DNA from: a virus | Lineage: Duplodnaviria > Heunggongvirae > Uroviricota > Caudoviricetes | DNA: 36,283 nt | IMG/VR virus record: IMGVR_UViG_2671180456_000012 | Strand: one strand, 5' to 3' | Shown: positions 1 to 28,600 of the stretch, piece by piece | How positions within the stretch are numbered: position 1 is the stretch's first letter | Layout of the letters: each line of letters begins with the position of its first letter | Made by a program: the position numbers and the translations under genes | Notes under the pieces: generated by a model | The model's input: only the letters and a program-made list of their open reading frames with translations | What the model was told of the DNA's origin: nothing | Databases searched by the model: none

Positions 1-41
1 ATTAAGCTCCTTAAAAGCGCCCATAGTGGGCGCTATTGTTT
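1..41 (-). terminator. Intercistronic hairpin + U-run + AAGGAG SD cassette (30-bp repeat, copy 1)
   Basis: Positions 1-30 are identical to 271-300. The minus-strand RNA would fold GCGCCCA-loop-UGGGCGC (16-34), followed by UUUU and AAGGAG. The gene it would serve starts just outside the window. Confidence 0.4.
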
Positions 42-269
42 TTATTTTTCTAAGTGAATATTAAAGCCAGCGTTTAAAAATTCTTGAAGCATTAAAGTTA
101 CATCAGCTTCATGGATTCCTGCGCGCGCTCTATGTTCTACGTCATTGATGTTTATTTTAAACGTTGTTTCGTCAACCACTTCAGAACTTAGAGCATACCC
201 AGCTAAACCAGCAATATCATAAACAAGAGTATGATTGTTGATATTTACGCCAGAGATGAAAATAACCAT
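42..269 (-). CDS. Hypothetical small protein (about 75 aa)
   Basis: Track ORF 42..320. The internal ATG at 269 (MVIFISG...) is the likely start because AAGGAG lies 7 nt upstream inside the repeat cassette; the longer N-terminus is translated from repeat sequence containing an N. No recognisable domain. Confidence 0.5.
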   Translation of the reverse strand: MVIFISGVNINNHTLVYDIAGLAGYALSSEVVDETTFKININDVEHRARAGIHEADVTLMLQEFLNAGFNIHLEK

Positions 270-270
270 G

Positions 271-323
271 ATTAAGCTCCTTAAAAGCGCCCATAGTGGG
301 NAGTGGGCGCCAGATTCCATTAA
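271..323 (-). terminator. Intercistronic hairpin + SD cassette (30-bp repeat, copy 2)
   Basis: 271-300 is identical to 1-30. The hairpin is interrupted by an N at 301, with an apparent duplication of agtgggcgc after it. Provides the SD for the 42..269 gene. Confidence 0.4.
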
Positions 324-974
324 TTACGCTTTGAAAGCATCAGCCAGATAGTTATAGAAATCATTTTTAATAAAGCGATATTGCTGCGTACCAGCTTTTG
401 CGCTTCCCATTCCTTTGACTTTCTCAACAAGTCCAAGACGTTCGCAAAGATTGATCAACTGGTTGGCTTGAGTATAGCCAGCGTCCAATTTAATTTCACA
501 CGCTTTTTTAGCTTCATTCATTAAATCGAAAACAGCGCCATTAGTGAACGTGTCGATCTCGTCGTTAATCATATCGATTAATGCGAATACACGAGATCCT
601 GACATATCAGCGACGGAATAAGTGCATTTGCCAGATTTAATTGATTTAACCAGATAAACCAGTTTTTCCAGAGAATAACTATTAGTCATTGCATCACGGA
701 AAAATACTTCTGGCGCTTGTTTGCTTGCTTTAATCGCATAGTAGAAAACAGAGCATAATTTTTCGTCTTCTACAGCGTTTACAACGTTGTTGATGAAGTA
801 AGCAAGTTTAGTGGTCGCAGCTTGCATATTTGCTTTGTCTGCTTTAGTGTGCGTACCATTTTTATAATGTTCGTTATATGTTTGAGTTGCCAGATCTGCT
901 TTTTCGCGCAGTTCATCGGATACAATGGAAGCAGCTTCAACGATGGATTTTTTAGAAATGATAATGTTAGCCAT
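324..974 (-). CDS. Hypothetical protein (216 aa)
   Basis: Long minus-strand ORF with AAGGA about 9 nt upstream of the ATG; an AT-rich promoter-like region lies upstream (975-1235). No motif recognised. Confidence 0.6.
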   Translation of the reverse strand: MANIIISKKSIVEAASIVSDELREKADLATQTYNEHYKNGTHTKADKANMQAATTKLAYFINNVVNAVEDEKLCSVFYYAIKASKQAPEVFFRDAMTNSYSLEKLVYLVKSIKSGKCTYSVADMSGSRVFALIDMINDEIDTFTNGAVFDLMNEAKKACEIKLDAGYTQANQLINLCERLGLVEKVKGMGSAKAGTQQYRFIKNDFYNYLADAFKA

Positions 975-1132
975 GATAATTTTTCCTTATGTAAATTTAA
1001 AATTTATTGTCGTTAGCGTCTTCGCTTTCGACGAGTTCAATTATCGATATGCGAAAAAAGATTGCAAGTGTTTTTTTAAATTTTTTTGCAGGGATGAAAG
1101 TCCTAGAAATAAAAGCGAGATCGTCGAAGGTG

Positions 1133-1143
1133 NNNNNNNNNNN
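1133..1143. other. Assembly gap (11 N) flanked by a tcgaaggtg direct repeat
   Basis: N run seen directly; the same 9-mer occurs on both sides. Confidence 0.9.
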
Positions 1144-1235
1144 TCGAAGGTGTTCCCTAAATAAATAATCGATTCCGGCTTTCGACCTTATATATATTTA
1201 GGTTATTTGATTTGTAGATATAAAGAAGTGATGTG

Positions 1236-1266
1236 AAAAATAATAACCGGACTTAGCCGGTTATTA
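1236..1266 (-). terminator. Rho-independent terminator of the leftward operon
   Basis: 10-bp inverted repeat taataaccgg / ccggttatta (1241-1266) with a 6-nt loop, followed on the minus strand by UUUUU (1236-1240). It lies 12 nt downstream of the stop of the 1278..1586 gene. Confidence 0.6.
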
Positions 1267-1277
1267 ACCTTATAGAT

Positions 1278-1586
1278 TTATTGAACAGACTCTACAGCCT
1301 TACGATTGGTGTCAAATAGCGCATCAACGAACTGTGCCGATGACTCGCTAGATTCGCAATCCAACATTGCCCGTTCTTCATTTGCCACTTTCTTACACAG
1401 TTCCACACTCTCACCTATCGCTTTTCCTGCTTTTACGGCTGCCGAAAATTGATACATGCAAACTGATACATTCTGAGACGTTGAGCACACATCATTCATC
1501 AGCGATTGAATGACAGGCTTATAGTCCATTGCATTTGCCGCAACTGAGCAAAGTAAAAATAATGGTGGTAACAATATCGATTTCAT
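1278..1586 (-). CDS. Secreted/periplasmic Cys-rich small protein (102 aa)
   Basis: N-terminal signal peptide (MKSILLPPLFLLCSVAANA, A-x-A cleavage motif), five Cys in the mature part; start close to the upstream gene stop. Confidence 0.6.
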   Translation of the reverse strand: MKSILLPPLFLLCSVAANAMDYKPVIQSLMNDVCSTSQNVSVCMYQFSAAVKAGKAIGESVELCKKVANEERAMLDCESSESSAQFVDALFDTNRKAVESVQ

Positions 1587-1589
1587 AAC

Positions 1590-2114
1590 TCAAAAAGGCA
1601 AAATTCGTTCAACCCAATCGAACAAAACAACTATTTTTCTACCGTTCTCGACACGTAGTGTAACCTGACAAGCATCTGCGCCTGCTGACACCCCCTCAAT
1701 TTCACGGCCATCCGCCATGTACACCCTTATAGATTTGTTTGCTTTGTAGGCTTGGTTGCAAATTGCAAAAAAATCGCGGCGTGATGGCCGATTATCGACA
1801 TAATCAGGGTGAACTGTTAGTCGACCTTTGAAATCGTGAGCGATACTGTCAACCACACCTGATTCAATTGTACTAATGCGTTCAAGTGGGAGCCTTATAC
1901 GATTTTCTTTGTCAAAAGGGGCTGGGCAAAGGTCAACTTTGTTACGAGATGGCATGAGGCCATAAACGTACATGCAAAACGCCTGGCCATCTTCGAGAGT
2001 GACCCTTACAGGAATTTGTTCTCTGCGCCAGAACATCAGTAGTTTTTCAACGTTAGTGTAATCTCGCGGCCAGAGTTCAGCTTGGATACCGTAGGTAATA
2101 TCTTTGGTTGTCAT
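1590..2114 (-). CDS. Hypothetical protein (174 aa; alternative longer start at 2192)
   Basis: Track ORF 1590..2192. The ATG at 2114 (MTTKDITYG...) sits 4 nt after the TGA stop of the upstream lipoprotein gene (TGAtgacATG), which suggests coupling. No motif recognised. Confidence 0.55.
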   Translation of the reverse strand: MTTKDITYGIQAELWPRDYTNVEKLLMFWRREQIPVRVTLEDGQAFCMYVYGLMPSRNKVDLCPAPFDKENRIRLPLERISTIESGVVDSIAHDFKGRLTVHPDYVDNRPSRRDFFAICNQAYKANKSIRVYMADGREIEGVSAGADACQVTLRVENGRKIVVLFDWVERILPF

Positions 2115-2118
2115 GTCA

Positions 2119-2583
2119 TCACAGAGTTGTTGGCAGAATGTCGATGTCACCAGAATTGCTGGTGAACACCCTGAATGCTTTTGTGTCTCCATTCTTCAGA
2201 GTCGTTTCTCGCTCTTGACGAGCGGGGTTTAGAGCACATAAACCTGCACCTTCAAGAGATGCACCCACAATTAATTCTCCGGCATTTAAATGGAAAGTCG
2301 CTTTTTCGCCTGTAGCCAGTTTTGCGACAGTTTCGCCGTTGATGAAAATGGAAGCATCACATCCAGCTCCTACAAAACCTGTGTCTCTCATTACCACCAA
2401 CGTAGCTGGCGCTGCGCTTTGATACTTGAACACTTTGGCCTGCGGTGCTGGTTTGGCGTCATGGATTGATATTGGGCGTGATTGGCACGCGGCAAGCATC
2501 AACACTGGTAACGTTAGTAGAGGGAGAAGCGAGTATTTCATGATAGTTTTAGAACAGAAAGTGAACAGTATGGGAGACTTCAT
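2119..2583 (-). CDS. Lipoprotein (candidate superinfection-exclusion protein)
   Basis: Hydrophobic h-region followed by the lipobox L-A-A-C (..LPVLMLAACQS). The start at 2583 has a strong GGGAGA SD 5 nt upstream; an alternative start at 2541 (MKYSLL..) gives a classical 20-aa signal peptide. Confidence 0.65.
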   Translation of the reverse strand: MKSPILFTFCSKTIMKYSLLPLLTLPVLMLAACQSRPISIHDAKPAPQAKVFKYQSAAPATLVVMRDTGFVGAGCDASIFINGETVAKLATGEKATFHLNAGELIVGASLEGAGLCALNPARQERETTLKNGDTKAFRVFTSNSGDIDILPTTL

Positions 2584-2609
2584 CTTTGTCTCCCTAATTG
2601 ATAGCGTGA

Positions 2610-2888
2610 TTATTTTAATCTGCTTAATAGCGTTTCGAGATCTTCCTTTGTCATATTAGAGTTCTCATAGATACGCATGATTTTCTCACGAGTCTTAGCG
2701 GAAGCCCCGACAGAAGATATAACCTTGTCAAAGTCGGCCATTGTCAATTGTTCCAGAATGGTATTTATGACTTCAGCCTTAGACATTTTGATATTTTTTT
2801 CTTTTAGTTTCACTTGAAACTTTCCAAGTTTGTCATTGGCCTTATCAGACAATGCTACCTGACAGTAAGTTGTTTTCTTTTCACTCAT
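2610..2888 (-). CDS. Ribbon-helix-helix (Arc/CopG-like) DNA-binding protein, putative
   Basis: 92 aa; N-terminal beta-strand (TYCQVALS) followed by two helices, the typical RHH pattern. Sits immediately downstream of the helicase. Confidence 0.5.
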   Translation of the reverse strand: MSEKKTTYCQVALSDKANDKLGKFQVKLKEKNIKMSKAEVINTILEQLTMADFDKVISSVGASAKTREKIMRIYENSNMTKEDLETLLSRLK

Positions 2889-2890
2889 AA

Positions 2891-4450
2891 CTAATCTCGT
2901 TTCAGAACTCCAAAATCGAATGCTCCATCAATAGGCAATACACCTTCTGCAAAGCCAGGTGTGGTGTCGATGATGTGTTTTCGCTCATAAGAGTGAGACA
3001 ACAGGTATTTGTTGCTAATGTCAATGAAATCAGTGATAAAACACACGTTTGCCTGATTTTTTTTGGCTCGTAAGCCACGACCGACACGCTGTCTCATTTC
3101 AACTTCTGCTTTCCCACCACCAGCAAGAATGACCGCACCAACGCTTGGCACATCAACACCAACATCCAGAATAGTCGAGCCTATTAAAACATCTATTTCA
3201 CCAGACGCTAAACTATTCAGCTTTGCTTGCCTTGTCGTCTGGTTAGATTCCCCATAGATGAAATCAACTTTAAGACCTGACTCCTTCATCATCTCCATCA
3301 GGATTTGCCCGTGGCGTTTAAGACGAACCAGAGTCATACAATTGAGAGAATGTTGCTTATAGAGCAATGCTTCGCGCACAATGGCCTCGTTACGTCCCAA
3401 ATTATACACGATCCCCAACTGATAAGCCTTTTGGTAGGCAGTGCTCATACCTACTCTAAAATTGAGGTGTTTGTTGGCAAGTTCTGCCTTGATTCTGACC
3501 TCGTCCGGTTTGTAGGCAACTTTATGATAAAGGAAGTACGGCTTTGCCAGAATGCCTCGATCAATCAGGTACTTTTCTGTGACTTTAATTTCAATTCGCC
3601 CGGCCACCGCCATCAGGCGCATGTTGGCTTCCGTCGAATCCTTCATGAACGGCGTGGCCGTAAGCGCCAGACGATAGTCTGCGTTCACACATAATCTGGC
3701 AATGTCATAGAAATTAGAGCCTGAAGACTCATGCGCTTCTTCCAGAATAAGCAGAGACACACTTGAAAGGAAGCGTTTCACCAACTCCCGACGTTTGAGG
3801 TGGTAGCTCTTTTTATCTGGTGTTGCATCGCGTGGTGGTTCTTCGAGGAAACTTGCAAGAGTTTGAACTGTAGCGACGTTGATATGTCGTGATACCTGGA
3901 ACTCACCCGAGCCAATGACTCCAACCTTTTGGTCTTTTAACCACGGTTCGCCATTTTCGGCGCGGTAGTCGATGGATCTCTGGAAGTTTTCGGCCATTTG
4001 AAACATCAGAACAGAGCGGGTTGTTAAAAATAATGTCATTCGACCGATACGTGCAGCTGCTTTGCAGGCAACGTTAGATTTCCCGCCACCAGTAGCGATC
4101 TGCGCAATCATCATTCCCTCTCGAACCAGTGTTTCCACAGTCTGATCCTGATACGCATAATCAGGATTGTATGGGAATGGGTTAACCGCCGGATTTGGTT
4201 TACCAAGCGCCGGGGCTTTGTCTTTGCGGATATGAACACATTTGATGCCCGCCTTGTTCAAGTTCGCCGCTACAGGCTTGGCAAAGCCAGCAGGGAACGA
4301 GTTTTTACTCCAGTTGAACATCGTGCTTGTGCCCTTCCAGTCGCCAGTCTCGACTTCGTAGCTCAACATCTGTTGCACCATTTGCTTTACCTTGTCATCT
4401 GCGCCAGAAATAAGCGCATTAACTGCGTTAGATACAATCCGAACAGTCAT
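2891..4450 (-). CDS. SF2 DNA/RNA helicase (DEAH-type)
   Basis: 519 aa with Walker A (TGGGKSN), motif II (LILEEAHESS), motif III (TATP) and motif VI (QRVGRGLR); AAGGAAAGAGG SD upstream. Confidence 0.85.
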   Translation of the reverse strand: MTVRIVSNAVNALISGADDKVKQMVQQMLSYEVETGDWKGTSTMFNWSKNSFPAGFAKPVAANLNKAGIKCVHIRKDKAPALGKPNPAVNPFPYNPDYAYQDQTVETLVREGMMIAQIATGGGKSNVACKAAARIGRMTLFLTTRSVLMFQMAENFQRSIDYRAENGEPWLKDQKVGVIGSGEFQVSRHINVATVQTLASFLEEPPRDATPDKKSYHLKRRELVKRFLSSVSLLILEEAHESSGSNFYDIARLCVNADYRLALTATPFMKDSTEANMRLMAVAGRIEIKVTEKYLIDRGILAKPYFLYHKVAYKPDEVRIKAELANKHLNFRVGMSTAYQKAYQLGIVYNLGRNEAIVREALLYKQHSLNCMTLVRLKRHGQILMEMMKESGLKVDFIYGESNQTTRQAKLNSLASGEIDVLIGSTILDVGVDVPSVGAVILAGGGKAEVEMRQRVGRGLRAKKNQANVCFITDFIDISNKYLLSHSYERKHIIDTTPGFAEGVLPIDGAFDFGVLKRD

Positions 4451-4468
4451 AAACCTCTTTCCTTAGTG

Positions 4469-4514
4469 CCTTTTGTATGTTATTTGGCTATTATAATAAG
4501 TAAGTGATTACTTA
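4469..4514. promoter_or_regulatory. Divergent promoter region with overlapping -10 elements and a TAAGTA-N6-TACTTA palindrome
   Basis: ATTATAAT at 4490-4497 reads as TATAAT on both strands. The palindrome taagta(4497-4502)/tactta(4509-4514) is at the predicted rightward start site. Only 64 bp separate the helicase and ParB starts. Confidence 0.35.
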
Positions 4515-5213
4515 GTGGATTGTAGCAATAAAATGGATGTAAAAATCACGATTTTGCAGGTTGATGTTGCCAACCTTCGCCCGAATACCTGGAACACCAA
4601 TTCGGTTGGTGCGCAGAATTTTGAAAAACTGAAAGGTTCTATCGAAAAATTGGGCTTTTTTAAGCCAATTTTGGCTCGTGAACTTGAAGATGGATTTTTT
4701 GAAATCCTCGGCGGCGAACATCGCTGGCGTGCTGCTATTGAGCAAGGAATTTCAACGGTTCCGGTGCTTTCTGTGGGCAAAATTAGCGATGTCGTAGCTA
4801 AACAGATGTCACTGGTGGACAACGAGCGATACGGTGAAGACGACCAAATCGCATTGCAACGCTTCATTGAAGAAATTCAGTCAGAACTTGACTATCAACT
4901 GTCTGAAATCGCCCCGTATGACGACGAAATCTCGATGGTTTTAGCAAAAGAGGCGGCAATCGACCTTGAAGCACTGGAGGCGTTGTCTCGTGGTAGTGAT
5001 GAGCCTGTCGATACCGACAAACGAGAGAAAACCGAACGTGTGGGTGCGGAACATCAGACCATGCGCTTCAAAGTAACTTTCGATGCGTCAGATCGTGTTG
5101 CAGAAACCATAAAAAACATCATCAAAGAGCAGGCTATTAACACCGGTAATGAAATGGAGAACGCTGGTGAGGCTCTGGTGTGGCTGGTCGACTACTACAA
5201 GGAGCGTATGTAA
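4515..5213 (+). CDS. ParB-like nuclease-domain protein 1
   Basis: N-terminal ParB/Srx fold motif (FEILGGEHRWRAAIEQGISTVPV) and an acidic C-terminal half. The track start is GTG at 4515; the ATG at 4533 is an alternative. Confidence 0.8.
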   Translation: MDCSNKMDVKITILQVDVANLRPNTWNTNSVGAQNFEKLKGSIEKLGFFKPILARELEDGFFEILGGEHRWRAAIEQGISTVPVLSVGKISDVVAKQMSLVDNERYGEDDQIALQRFIEEIQSELDYQLSEIAPYDDEISMVLAKEAAIDLEALEALSRGSDEPVDTDKREKTERVGAEHQTMRFKVTFDASDRVAETIKNIIKEQAINTGNEMENAGEALVWLVDYYKERM

Positions 5214-25667: not shown

Positions 25668-25684
25668 ACAAGGATTTTTTGAAC

Positions 25685-28600
25685 ATGGAACAGTTCAAGA
25701 AGAAAAAGCTACCGCTGTTTATTGCCGGTGCGGGTGGTAAAAAAAGCAGCAAAAGCTCCAGCCGTACACCGGTTGAAGCCGACGATACCGTAAATTCTCG
25801 TGCAATGGCCGCTATCCTCGATCTTCTTGGGGAAGGGGTAATTGGCGGCTTAGTAAATGGCGCAAGATCTATTTTTATCGACGATCTGCCGATTGTAAAT
25901 GAAGACGGTTCCTCCAACTTCAGCGGAATCACATGGGATTTTCGCGACGGTTCACAAGACCAGACTCCAATGTCTGGCTTTGATTTCGTTGAAACGCCTA
26001 AATCCGTCAATATCCAGTTAAAAAAAACACATTATGTAACGGTTTCAATCGATAACGATGAAGCTGATCGGGTTCGTGTCATCATGAAGTTTCCTTCTTT
26101 GCGAAGCATAGATAAAAAAACTGGTGACACGAACGGTACGACTGTTGAGTACAAGTTCCAGATAGCAAATGGCGACTCAACATTTGTAGATGTGGTCGCT
26201 GAAGGTGAAAAAAGCGTTGGCATTAAGCTAACAGCAAAGAAGACCGGCGTTTATTACCGTAGCTATGAGCTGAAGCTGCCTAAGCCTGGACGAGCATACA
26301 AGGTTCGTGTGGTCCGTATTACCGATGATAACAGCAGCCAGTATCTCTATAACGATACATGGGTGGACTCAATAGGTGAGATTGTAGATACACCGATGAA
26401 CTACCCAAACTCTGTGCTGGTGGGTCTGAAGGTTAATTCTGAGCAGTTTGGTAGCACCATGCCATCTCGTTCGTATTTGGTACGTGGATTAAAAATTCGC
26501 GTGCCGTCAAACTACAACGAGGCCAGCAACACTTATGATGGTGTATGGGATGGCACTTTTAAGCTGTTGTCTTCTTCGAACCCCGCGTGGATTCTCTTTG
26601 ATTTGCTGACCAATGCTCGATATGGCCTTGGTCAGTATGTGTCGGAATCTATGATTGACCTTGGCCAGTTGTACCAGATTGGTCGATATTGTGACGAAGA
26701 GGTCGATGATGGCTTTGGTGGCAAAGAGAAACGCTTTGCAATCAATACGCAGATCACCAGTCGACAGGACGCATACCGGCTAATTCAGGATATTGCTGGA
26801 GCATTCCGCGGCATGGTGTTTTGGGCTGGTGGGATGGTTAACATCATGCAGGATAGCCCATCAGATCCGGTAATGATGTTTACCAACTCTAACGTCAAAG
26901 ATGGATTGTTTACCTATAAAGGTTCTGCGCGTAAAGATCGCCCATCCGTTGCGCTCGTAACCTACAACAACAAGGAGGACGGTTATAAGCAAAACATCGA
27001 GTACGTCGAAGATCAGGACGCAATGCGCCGTTATGGTGAGCGTAAAACAGAAGTCGTAGCATTTGGCTGTACAAGCCGAGGGCAGGCTCACCGAGTTGGT
27101 TTGTGGCTTTTATATACCGCCAGAATGGAGTCGGATGTAATTACATTTACTGCCGGCTTAGACGCGTCATTTCTGATGCCTGGTGAAACCGTTCTGATTC
27201 AGAACAAATATCGCGCAGGCAAACGTAACTCAGGTCGAATTGTGGCGTTTACCAAAAACAGCGTCACACTCGATGCGCCTGTGTCGTTAGCCAAAGGCGG
27301 CTGCTTTATTCGAATACTGAATCAGGAAGGCAAAATCGTTGAACGCGATGTTCTTGAAACTGGCGAAAATATAACAAAAGTTACGTTTTCAAAAGCCCTG
27401 TCTTCGGCTGAAACGCCTGTTTTGAACGGCGTCTGGACTATTACAGAACCAGACCTCGAACCTATGCGCGTTCGCATCGTTAACATCGCGCAGGGGGAAA
27501 CGCCGGGTAGCTTTGACATCACCGCTGTTGAGAACAATCCGTCTAAATATGAGGCAATCGACAATGGTGCAACGCTGATTCCGCAGAATACGACGGTATT
27601 GGACCCAACTTACTCCAAGCCATCTAATTTGCAAATCACTGAAGGGACTTATCTCTCAAGCCCGGGCAACCTGTCAGTAAAACTGACTGCAACATGGGAA
27701 GGGAAATCTCCAGAGTATTGGATCAGTTGGCGACGTTCTGATGAAAACAATGTATCGAACTGGCAATCGGCGCGTGTAACCGAAGAGCAATACGAAATCG
27801 TTAATGTCGCGGAGAATGGACGCTACGACTTCCAGCTGTATGCGGTTTCATTCAACGGTAAAAAAACAGAGATTATCAGTGCCGTTTATCAGGTGTTGGG
27901 CACAATGACACCGCCGGATTCCCCAACGTCATTAACGGCCGTTGGAGACTATCGTAATGTGATACTGAATTGGGTTAATCCAGATTCGGTAGACCTTGAT
28001 CACATTAATGTTTACGCATCCCAGACCAACAATCTGGATACGGCGAAACTGATCGCAGAGTCTGCAAGCACCACCTTTACACATGCTGGTCTTGGGGATA
28101 GCGAAACGTGGTATTACTGGGTTCGAGCATCGAACAAGCGAGGTATGTTAAGTCCTCCGAACTCAAACTTGGGTACAGAGGCGACAACTCGCGATGTACT
28201 GTCGTTCCTGACTGGCAAAATTACATCTTCCGAGCTTGGTCAGGCTCTGCTTGAGGACATCAACAGCAAAGCCTCTCAAGAAGCAGTTGACGAGTTAAAT
28301 GAGCATATCAACCAGAGCGTCGAATCTTTGGAGGGGGCGGTAAACGACGTTAAGGAAGATATAGCTGAATTAGATAAGCAGTTCAGCGATAACCTCGCGG
28401 ATTTTGAAATAAAATTCAACGAGCGTAGCGATGCTTTGGAGAACGCACAAACCGAGCTTAAAGGTGAGGTTTCGGCAACGATCGACAAGGTCAATGAAGC
28501 GTTTGAAAAAATTGATGCTACTGATGCTGCAATTGTTGAAATCGAAAACACCGTATCTGAACACGATAAAGCTCTCGCTAATACAGTCGAGGCAATAAAG

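Follow-up and report, generated by a model that had tools for sequence, protein, structure and literature searches.

A FljA-family gene flanked by exchangeable genes for predicted exported proteins in an SSU5-type phage-plasmid

FljA-family proteins act on the fliC mRNA, T4 Spackle inhibits the gp5 tail lysozyme, and MliC/PliC-type lipoproteins inhibit lysozyme. Among phage-encoded lipoproteins, Llp of T5 and Cor of phi80/N15/T1-type phages mask the outer-membrane receptor FhuA. The tail-cluster lipoproteins (Lpp) of mEp021 and mEp010 exclude phages and provide a further precedent (PMC11893012). The present study concerns a row of minus-strand genes in a 36,283-nt stretch of DNA from a tailed phage (Caudoviricetes; IMG/VR record IMGVR_UViG_2671180456_000012), the whole of which is hereafter called the window. 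A first-pass annotation of this DNA had proposed that a lipoprotein and a secreted Cys-rich protein, encoded at 1278-2583 within an early helicase operon, constitute a superinfection-exclusion pair masking the receptor used by the phage itself.

Based on the comparisons described below, we regard it as somewhat better than an even chance that the interval 1241-2583 represents a three-gene accessory ("moron") cassette inserted in a recombination hot spot, and that its exported proteins remodel the envelope separately rather than as a two-component system. Both exported genes recognized in the first pass were found to be real; the third gene of the interval, encoding a FljA-like protein between them, had been overlooked (Table 1). 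Megablast of window positions 1200-4500 identified the window as an SSU5-type phage-plasmid, with Escherichia phage CMS-2020a matching at 99.0% identity over 100% of the query and Salmonella phage SSU5 at 79% identity. The matches of Cyrano, of PhiR41_1 (a phage that grows on E. coli K-12) and of a second CMS-2020a record began only at about position 2635, and the interval thus corresponds to a stretch in which near relatives diverge.

Fifty-one loci were gathered from viral and genome collections with the FljA-like protein as the anchor and, together with phage records and the window, gave a set of 56 related loci. They were revealed to share a common frame, namely the helicase gene, a gene for a 92-amino-acid (aa) protein, a variable position (slot A), the FljA-like gene, a further variable position (slot B), a terminator hairpin and a phrog_1513 gene. 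Slot A was occupied in 33 loci by a gene for a phrog_890 lipoprotein on the same strand as the row, slot B of these loci holding the gene for the secreted 102-aa protein in 17 cases and being empty in 16. In the Klebsiella types (11 loci), slot A contained a 28%-identical phrog_890 homologue on the opposite strand, accompanied in slot B by the 102-aa gene (five loci) or by a phrog_27673 gene (six loci). An unrelated 266-aa lipoprotein, also encoded on the opposite strand, filled slot A in six loci of the Cyrano type (slot B: phrog_27673 in two, empty in four); a 196-aa secreted protein was encoded there in four loci and nothing in two, with slot B empty throughout both of these last groups.

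The Klebsiella elements carry slot-A genes that are 98-100% identical, and yet two very different slot-B alleles, and the SSU5 and Yersinia pMT1-type elements possess the lipoprotein without the 102-aa protein. Among the plasmids in PLSDB, the FljA-like gene was found in 831, the lipoprotein in 421 (including 62 from Yersinia and 83 from Enterobacter), and the 102-aa gene in 259, none of which came from Yersinia or Enterobacter. These distributions thus indicated that slots A and B turn over independently, and the assumption that the two exported proteins form a pair was contradicted by their independent assortment in the 56 loci. Judged by gene content, what stays constant in the hot spot is the FljA-like gene, and the exported proteins do not form an obligate pair. 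In SSU5, Cyrano and a Klebsiella element, the cassette likewise ends with the same terminator hairpin, with or without the 102-aa gene. The cassette was present in 90 of 5,426 complete E. coli genomes, in each case on a plasmid. In RefSeq, its three products are mostly termed "hypothetical protein", with a few records calling the FljA-like gene a transcriptional regulator.

The slot-A gene of the window encodes a lipoprotein precursor of 154 aa from its first ATG at 2583, which is preceded by a GGGAG Shine-Dalgarno sequence, or of 140 aa from the ATG at 2541; the 14 additional residues leave the mature protein identical, and the 140-aa form is that of most homologues. From ATG 2541, the N-terminus reads MKYSLLPLLTLPVLMLAAC, with the lipobox L-A-A-C at residues 16-19, and the mature protein of 122 aa begins with CQSRP. 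The export signal was judged by rules (charged n-region, hydrophobic core and lipobox), not by SignalP/LipoP, and displayed a mean Kyte-Doolittle value of 2.45 over the 12 residues before the Cys together with an n-region charge of +1.6, as expected for a bacterial lipoprotein processed by Lgt, LspA and Lnt. Alignment of 71 homologues showed the lipobox Cys to be invariant, along with two further Cys residues and an RD motif, and a canonical [LVI][ASTVI][GAS]C box was present in 59; the lipobox LAAC reported in the first pass was confirmed by this conservation. The residue at position +2 after the lipobox Cys is Q in the window; the family as a whole has A, S, Q or F there and never Asp, and sorting to the outer membrane was therefore predicted by the Lol rule of E. 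coli. The product is accordingly best described as a predicted outer-membrane lipoprotein, the residues around its lipobox pointing to outer-membrane sorting.

The lipoprotein matched phrog_890 over its full length (residues 9-140 against profile positions 6-136 of 136), a widespread and uncharacterized prophage family. Its score against Pfam DUF2846 was 18.1 bits, below the cut-off of 34.3; Bdellovibrio Bd1399, one DUF2846-annotated structure, was moved by its authors to DUF4360. The AlphaFold model showed a beta-sandwich with a predicted local distance difference test (pLDDT) score of 86.8. Foldseek searches against viral models returned uncharacterized proteins only, and PDB sequence searches with family profiles gave zero matches. 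In one Salmonella-type element (L024, 4679-4981), the phrog_890 gene has an in-frame internal deletion that removes the central strands and leaves 100 aa instead of 140, which suggests that the gene can decay in some lineages. An o-spanin was also considered and was ruled out by the gene position in the helicase row and by the 122-aa beta-sandwich fold; the lysis genes of Cyrano lie after the tail fibre genes, apart from the helicase row.

The slot-B product of the window, the 102-aa protein, comprises a 19-aa signal peptide (MKSILLPPLFLLCSVAANA, followed by MD) and an 83-aa acidic helical mature part with four Cys residues. In eight homologues, the character of a Sec-type cleavable signal peptide (MK/K, hydrophobic core and AxA) was retained despite variation of the sequence itself, the cleavage motif before residue 20 being A-N-A, V-S-A or A-S-A, and the earlier assignment of a signal peptide to this protein was upheld. 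The designation "Cys-rich" was overstated, in that four Cys residues fall within the 83 mature residues and the fifth belongs to the signal peptide; this Cys13 was considered as a lipobox residue and rejected, being not conserved. Judged by their conservation, the export signals of both proteins are real, far beyond chance, and the conserved Cys pairs of the exported proteins fit an oxidizing compartment. An exhaustive profile search of 1.84 billion representative proteins identified only five clusters of the 102-aa family, all from the same element type save one remote relative, so that by these searches the protein is an orphan confined to SSU5-type elements. A distant relative, P0145, likewise has a signal peptide and four Cys residues. 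The 102-aa protein was modelled as a helical bundle (pLDDT 74.8), and fold comparisons gave no informative match.

The alternative slot-B allele, phrog_27673, encodes a 99-aa secreted protein with four Cys residues that is, by hhalign (88%), remotely homologous to the 102-aa protein. It fills the slot in L034 (5532-5831), L042, L044, L045, L048 and L051, and in L049 and L050 at 56%. A weak match (E 1.8e-5) linked it to phrog_1256, whose annotation as "valyl tRNA synthetase modifier" looks doubtful for a secreted protein.

The FljA-like protein scored 282.4 bits with PF03614, for which the cut-off is 24, residues 5-171 aligning with positions 1-170 of the 170-residue profile, and also belongs to phrog_1444; a weak Hfq-like match was located at residues 120-162. 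Although the open reading frame extends from 1590 to 2192, the start consistent with the family is the ATG at 2114. On the strength of this full-length alignment, the product is a bona fide member of the FljA ("repressor of phase-1 flagellin") family. Neither a flagellin nor a hin gene was found in the flanks of the FljA-like gene in the window or in the 56 related loci, and linkage to a second flagellin gene or to an invertible hin switch was accordingly absent there. K. pneumoniae has no flagella, and Y. pestis does not express them. The FljA-like gene was nevertheless retained in PLSDB plasmids from Klebsiella (341) and Yersinia (62), with 65-83% identity, which argues for a target other than, or additional to, fliC. 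The RNA target may thus not, or not only, be fliC; alternatively, the gene may be kept for use in other hosts. No paper addressing a plasmid FljA-like gene kept in non-flagellated hosts was found in the literature searched. As the invariant core of the hot spot, this gene is the most intriguing item of the interval. A contig labelled "MAG: Bacillota bacterium" (L062, JAEWTL010000044.1) carries a typical enterobacterial SSU5-type locus, with a helicase 93% and a FljA-like protein 67% identical to those of the window, and is most likely mis-binned.

The genomic positions of phrog_890 in other phages were then compared. The gene lies between the tail-tip genes K (JAB and NlpC/P60 domains) and I, just upstream of J, in the E. 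coli phages mEp390 and CharmingMan, and likewise between K and I in Klebsiella prophages (the protein being indexed in 1,326 contig-collection blocks) and in the Pseudomonas phages phiAH14a and CF54a. It directly follows the tape measure gene in HK639 and Enterobacter prophages, stands immediately downstream of the cI repressor gene in Vibrio phage H20, and comes after gene D in one P2-like phage. A signal-peptide-bearing lipoprotein cannot be a virion component. That unrelated lambdoid phages repeatedly carry its gene within their tail-tip operons is therefore reminiscent of cor, llp and the lpp genes of the mEp phages. On this contextual evidence, a role of the lipoprotein alone in superinfection exclusion or envelope conversion is plausible. 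In this respect the proposal of superinfection exclusion survived in part: the lipoprotein by itself is a reasonable candidate, and a cooperating pair masking the phage's own receptor found no support.

The question of the own receptor was approached through the J-like protein. This protein of 1577 aa contains the Pfam domains FNIII-A_GpJ, Phage-tail_3 and Phage_Tail_Tip and aligned with residues 2-931 of lambda J; nothing matched lambda residues 932-1132, so that the earlier statement that the LamB-binding C-terminus is absent was correct, the last ~200 residues of lambda J having no counterpart. Compared with lambda J, the protein also contains an insertion of ~560 residues (at roughly 862-1421), and its C-terminus lies just past the Phage_Tail_Tip domain. 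The J protein of Cyrano is 99.7% identical to that of the window over 1575 residues, with no difference in the last 300, and yet Cyrano has neither the phrog_890 lipoprotein nor the 102-aa gene, which speaks against masking of the phage's own receptor. In CMS-2020a (SCU-107), the lipoprotein is shared (98.6%), and the tail-fibre match stops at the same point as that of Cyrano; the distal side fibre therefore differs from that of the window. In this small set of elements, the cassette tracks neither J nor the tip of the side fibre. Kim et al. reportedly found that SSU5 adsorbs to the outer core of lipopolysaccharide rather than to a protein; such a receptor would fit poorly with protein masking of the Llp type. 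The side-fibre and assembly genes of the window (30506-35486, plus strand) showed 94-97% DNA identity to the integrated lambdoid coliphages PhiR68_2, mEp460 and ev099, which indicates recent exchange of a tail-fibre module between phage-plasmids and lambdoid phages.

From helicase to 102-aa gene, the genes of the row are separated by gaps of 2, 26, 4 and 3 nt, the last two lying between the lipoprotein stop and the FljA-like start and between the FljA-like stop and the start of the 102-aa gene. One strong terminator-like hairpin with a T-run was found on the minus strand at 1266-1241, and the spacing together with this single terminator makes co-transcription of the cassette with the helicase likely, as the first-pass annotation had assumed. 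In the SSU5, Salmonella, Yersinia and Buttiauxella types, a GC-rich hairpin with a T-rich tract is located between the 92-aa and lipoprotein genes; in the window type, this segment is replaced by the 14-codon N-terminal extension and the new Shine-Dalgarno sequence, and the coupling of the cassette to the helicase promoter probably differs between lineages.

The equivalent region of Cyrano is covered by RNA sequencing of a lysogen of E. coli LF82 (PMC9928086, Table 1, Table S1). CYRAN_117, the homologue of the 92-aa protein gene, was the most highly expressed gene of the region, at 12-fold over the prophage background, and the helicase gene, the slot-A lipoprotein gene CYRAN_115 and the FljA-like gene CYRAN_114 were also above background in the lysogen, the latter two rising by ~3-4 log2 units (8-16-fold) in growing bacteria and inside macrophages, with the flanking ParB and phrog_1513 genes staying at the floor (PMC9928086). 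The gene row is therefore active in the plasmid-prophage state and can be described only in part, if at all, as an early lytic operon; the term "early operon" was thus not substantiated. Relative to Salmonella-type relatives, nonsynonymous divergence (dN) was 0.05 for the helicase, 0.10 for phrog_1513, 0.11 for the FljA-like protein, 0.13-0.18 for the lipoprotein, 0.21 for the 102-aa protein and 0.31-0.35 for the 92-aa protein, synonymous divergence (dS) being saturated or high throughout and dN/dS not computable for most gene pairs. All genes of the row are maintained coding genes; the exported proteins, though diverging more quickly than the replication genes, are under clear constraint.

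In the mechanism that we propose, the cassette lies downstream of the conserved helicase and 92-aa genes and ends at the conserved terminator, with a putative FljA-family RNA-binding repressor as its core between replaceable slots. Slot A, before the FljA-like gene, supplies in the window the predicted outer-membrane beta-sandwich lipoprotein of phrog_890, and slot B, from the FljA-like stop codon to the terminator, a small periplasmic four-Cys helical protein. The plasmid-prophage would express the cassette genes, whose products would remodel the envelope of the host: the lipoprotein may act alone, anchored in the inner leaflet of the outer membrane, the secreted protein would act separately in the periplasm, and the FljA-like protein would repress translation of a specific mRNA, perhaps that of flagellin in flagellated hosts and something else in Klebsiella. 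As to what the lipoprotein does, we tentatively suggest, at somewhat less than an even chance, that it blocks adsorption or post-adsorption entry of incoming siphophages or neutralizes receptors in lysis debris.

Several observations weigh against the cassette and its lipoprotein being understood in this way. The literature searched holds no functional study of phrog_890, of phrog_9536 (the family of the 102-aa protein) or of the plasmid FljA-like clade. No sequence or fold similarity was detected to Llp, to the mEp021 Lpp (which is of Cor size), to Spackle or to the PADLOC models, no Cor sequence being compared directly. The lipoprotein gene is 23 kb from J, lacking the adjacency to and co-variation with the receptor-binding gene that mark Llp and Cor. 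The expression data derive from Cyrano, in which a different lipoprotein, encoded on the opposite strand, occupies slot A, and the hairpin preceding the lipoprotein gene in the SSU5 and Yersinia types means that regulation may differ between types.

Of the alternatives, the cooperative receptor masking proposed in the first pass, in which lipoprotein and secreted protein would together shield the outer-membrane receptor of the phage's own J protein or tail fibre as Llp and Cor do for FhuA, appears very improbable. Both proteins are indeed exported and encoded within one tight gene row, the J-like protein lacks the LamB-binding end, Llp, Cor and the mEp Lpp proteins offer a precedent, and the exact 102-aa type was seen only in those of the 56 loci that have some phrog_890 gene. 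These points are outweighed by the absence of the 102-aa gene from 16 of the 33 same-strand phrog_890 loci, the switching of slot-B alleles beside nearly invariant (98-100% identical) Klebsiella lipoproteins, the occurrence of phrog_27673 with the unrelated 266-aa lipoprotein, the almost identical J of Cyrano (99.7% over 1575 aa) in an element with neither gene, the same lipoprotein beside a different distal side fibre in CMS-2020a (SCU-107), and the lack of homology to Llp or the Cor-size Lpp021. The lipoprotein could instead be a host-fitness factor of lysogenic conversion, protecting, as lambda Bor/Iss or TraT do, against serum, bile, bacteriocins or other stresses on the envelope. Its classic moron positions (after cI, at tail-operon ends and in a plasmid hot spot), the 8-16-fold rise of the Cyrano slot-A lipoprotein and FljA-like genes in macrophages and growing cells, and the frequency of these elements among clinical Enterobacteriaceae plasmids are in agreement with this explanation; we nevertheless hold it to be unlikely, since there is no homology to Bor, Iss or TraT and since repeated insertion into the tail-tip clusters of unrelated lambdoid phages is more easily explained by an effect on phage entry.

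A single module built around the FljA-like regulator, in which the exported proteins would act on the flagellum or motility along with flagellin repression, or in which the FljA-like protein would control translation of its neighbours, was also weighed. The invariance of the FljA-like gene in the hot spot, the position of the 102-aa gene or phrog_27673 always 3-10 nt past its stop codon and before the shared terminator, and the PF03614 and Hfq-like matches in a family generally known to act on fliC mRNA are all compatible with such a module, and its flagellar version would shut down a phage receptor and an immune target at once. Retention of the gene in 341 Klebsiella and 62 Yersinia plasmids, whose hosts do not make flagella, the many elements with a FljA-like gene but empty or unrelated neighbouring slots, and the wide occurrence of phrog_890 without any FljA gene render it improbable. 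Still less probable, in our estimation, is that one of the exported proteins, or both, would inhibit in the periplasm the cell-wall hydrolase of a superinfecting phage, after the example of Spackle or the MliC/PliC-type lipoproteins and with the NlpC/P60 domain of K as an obvious candidate target, or would serve as orphan immunity proteins against bacteriocin or type VI effectors: the 102-aa protein combines small size, acidity, helical structure and disulfides with a signal for the periplasm, phrog_890 directly follows the JAB and NlpC/P60 gene K in several phages, the K homologue of the window carries an NlpC/P60 domain, and allelic turnover of slot B would fit an arms-race target, but no sequence matches were obtained and the argument is purely analogical. 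A broader scheme, which we likewise consider rather unlikely, would centre on the FljA-like protein rather than on the exported proteins. Since it is retained by hundreds of Klebsiella and Y. pestis plasmids in non-flagellated hosts, its true target would be other than flagellin mRNA, and it would regulate an mRNA of the host envelope, of the element itself or of the exported proteins coupled to it. With the exchangeable slots it would form a hitherto unrecognized "surface-reprogramming" module, in which phrog_890 would be a new and widespread family of entry-blockers, perhaps directed against the NlpC/P60 activity of K. Compared with all of these, an accessory cassette whose exported products act separately on the envelope accounts best for the observations.

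Table 1. Coordinates of the gene row, the J-like gene and related hairpins (window positions unless a locus is named)
Feature	Position	Strand	Basis
Superfamily-2 DEAD/ResIII helicase, first gene of the row	2891-4450	-	profile matches
92-aa protein, phrog_1466, between helicase and cassette	2610-2888	-	phrog_1466, E 5e-46
Lipoprotein precursor, phrog_890	2119-2583	-	phrog_890, E 6.6e-52
FljA-family protein, 174 aa	1590-2114	-	PF03614, E 1.5e-84
Small secreted protein, 102 aa, phrog_9536	1278-1586	-	signal peptide and four Cys
Intrinsic-terminator hairpin closing the gene row	1241-1266	-	TAATAACCGG-CTAAGT-CCGGTTATTA, then TTTTT
J-like central tail fibre protein	25679-30412	+	lambda J alignment; Pfam domains
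Terminator-like hairpin between 92-aa and lipoprotein genes	L001 ~3997-4060; L026, L058, L061 ~4494-4558		

Regarding the neighbouring genes, the helicase was 90-100% conserved in all 56 loci. Its moderate match to the PADLOC PbeA models (E 5e-23) probably reflects generic superfamily-2 helicase similarity rather than a defence function, and, such generic helicase matches excepted, PADLOC and NCBIfam scans of the three cassette proteins and their neighbours revealed no defence or named family. The 92-aa protein had been labelled a ribbon-helix-helix (RHH) regulator; no Pfam or NCBIfam match at E<=0.1 and no PDB match to an RHH protein was obtained for it, and only its N-terminal strand-helix-helix pattern is, by eye, suggestive of this fold, leaving the label without support from these searches. 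Its gene is the fastest-evolving of the row, keeping 52-63% aa identity where the adjacent helicase keeps 90-93%, and the protein could be a type-specific regulator.

An Rfam scan of window positions 1-5000 gave no match. At the start of the window, an exact 30-nt direct repeat, ATTAAGCTCCTTAAAAGCGCCCATAGTGGG, occurs at 1-30 and 271-300, 270 nt apart; each copy holds a GC-rich hairpin, the copies flank a small phrog_1585 gene, and the second ends at an ambiguous base (N at 301). A run of 11 N at 1133-1143 is bordered by the repeated word TCGAAGGTG. These repeats and N-runs may be artefacts of assembly or masking, or tandem small-gene units.

SSU5-type phage-plasmids are common in clinical Enterobacteriaceae. 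Should phrog_890 proteins block phage entry, they would constitute a new exclusion family in prophages of E. coli, Klebsiella, Pseudomonas, Vibrio and Ralstonia, with a bearing on host range in phage therapy. Should the FljA homologue silence flagellin or another surface antigen, carriage of these plasmids would alter how the host moves, how susceptible it is to flagellotropic phages and how innate immunity recognizes it. What was found at this locus is a set of correctly spotted export signals on uncharacterized accessory genes, not a demonstrated system.

In comparison with the known systems, the 102-aa protein resembles T4 Spackle in being small, signal-peptide-bearing, mainly helical, disulfide-containing and, by prediction, periplasmic, but it has no detectable sequence or structural similarity to Spackle, and its family is confined to SSU5-type elements. 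The FljA-like protein corresponds to Salmonella FljA, the post-transcriptional repressor of fliC (PF03614), over its full length, including a C-terminal Hfq/Sm-like segment; its gene, unlike that of Salmonella, is borne on a phage-plasmid, is unlinked to flagellin or the hin invertase, and is kept in plasmids of Klebsiella and Y. pestis, hosts without working flagella, where its target may differ. Like T5 Llp, Cor and the mEp021 and mEp010 Lpp proteins, the lipoprotein is phage-encoded and has a lipobox without Asp at +2, and members of phrog_890 elsewhere stand in or beside a tail or host-recognition cluster as do llp, cor and lpp. The mature protein of the window is about twice as large (122 versus ~55-60 aa), however, and its gene, 23 kb from J, does not co-vary with J; exclusion is here a candidate role. 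The exported genes are probably uncharacterized members of an already known kind, the prophage morons that act on the envelope. With lambda-type morons such as bor, lom, rexAB and sieB, the cassette shares small accessory genes in a variable slot between conserved genes, a terminator of its own, expression in the lysogen of a close relative and envelope-targeted products; it differs from them in having no homology to Bor, Lom or SieB and in occupying a slot within the helicase row of a plasmid-prophage, around a conserved RNA-binding repressor.

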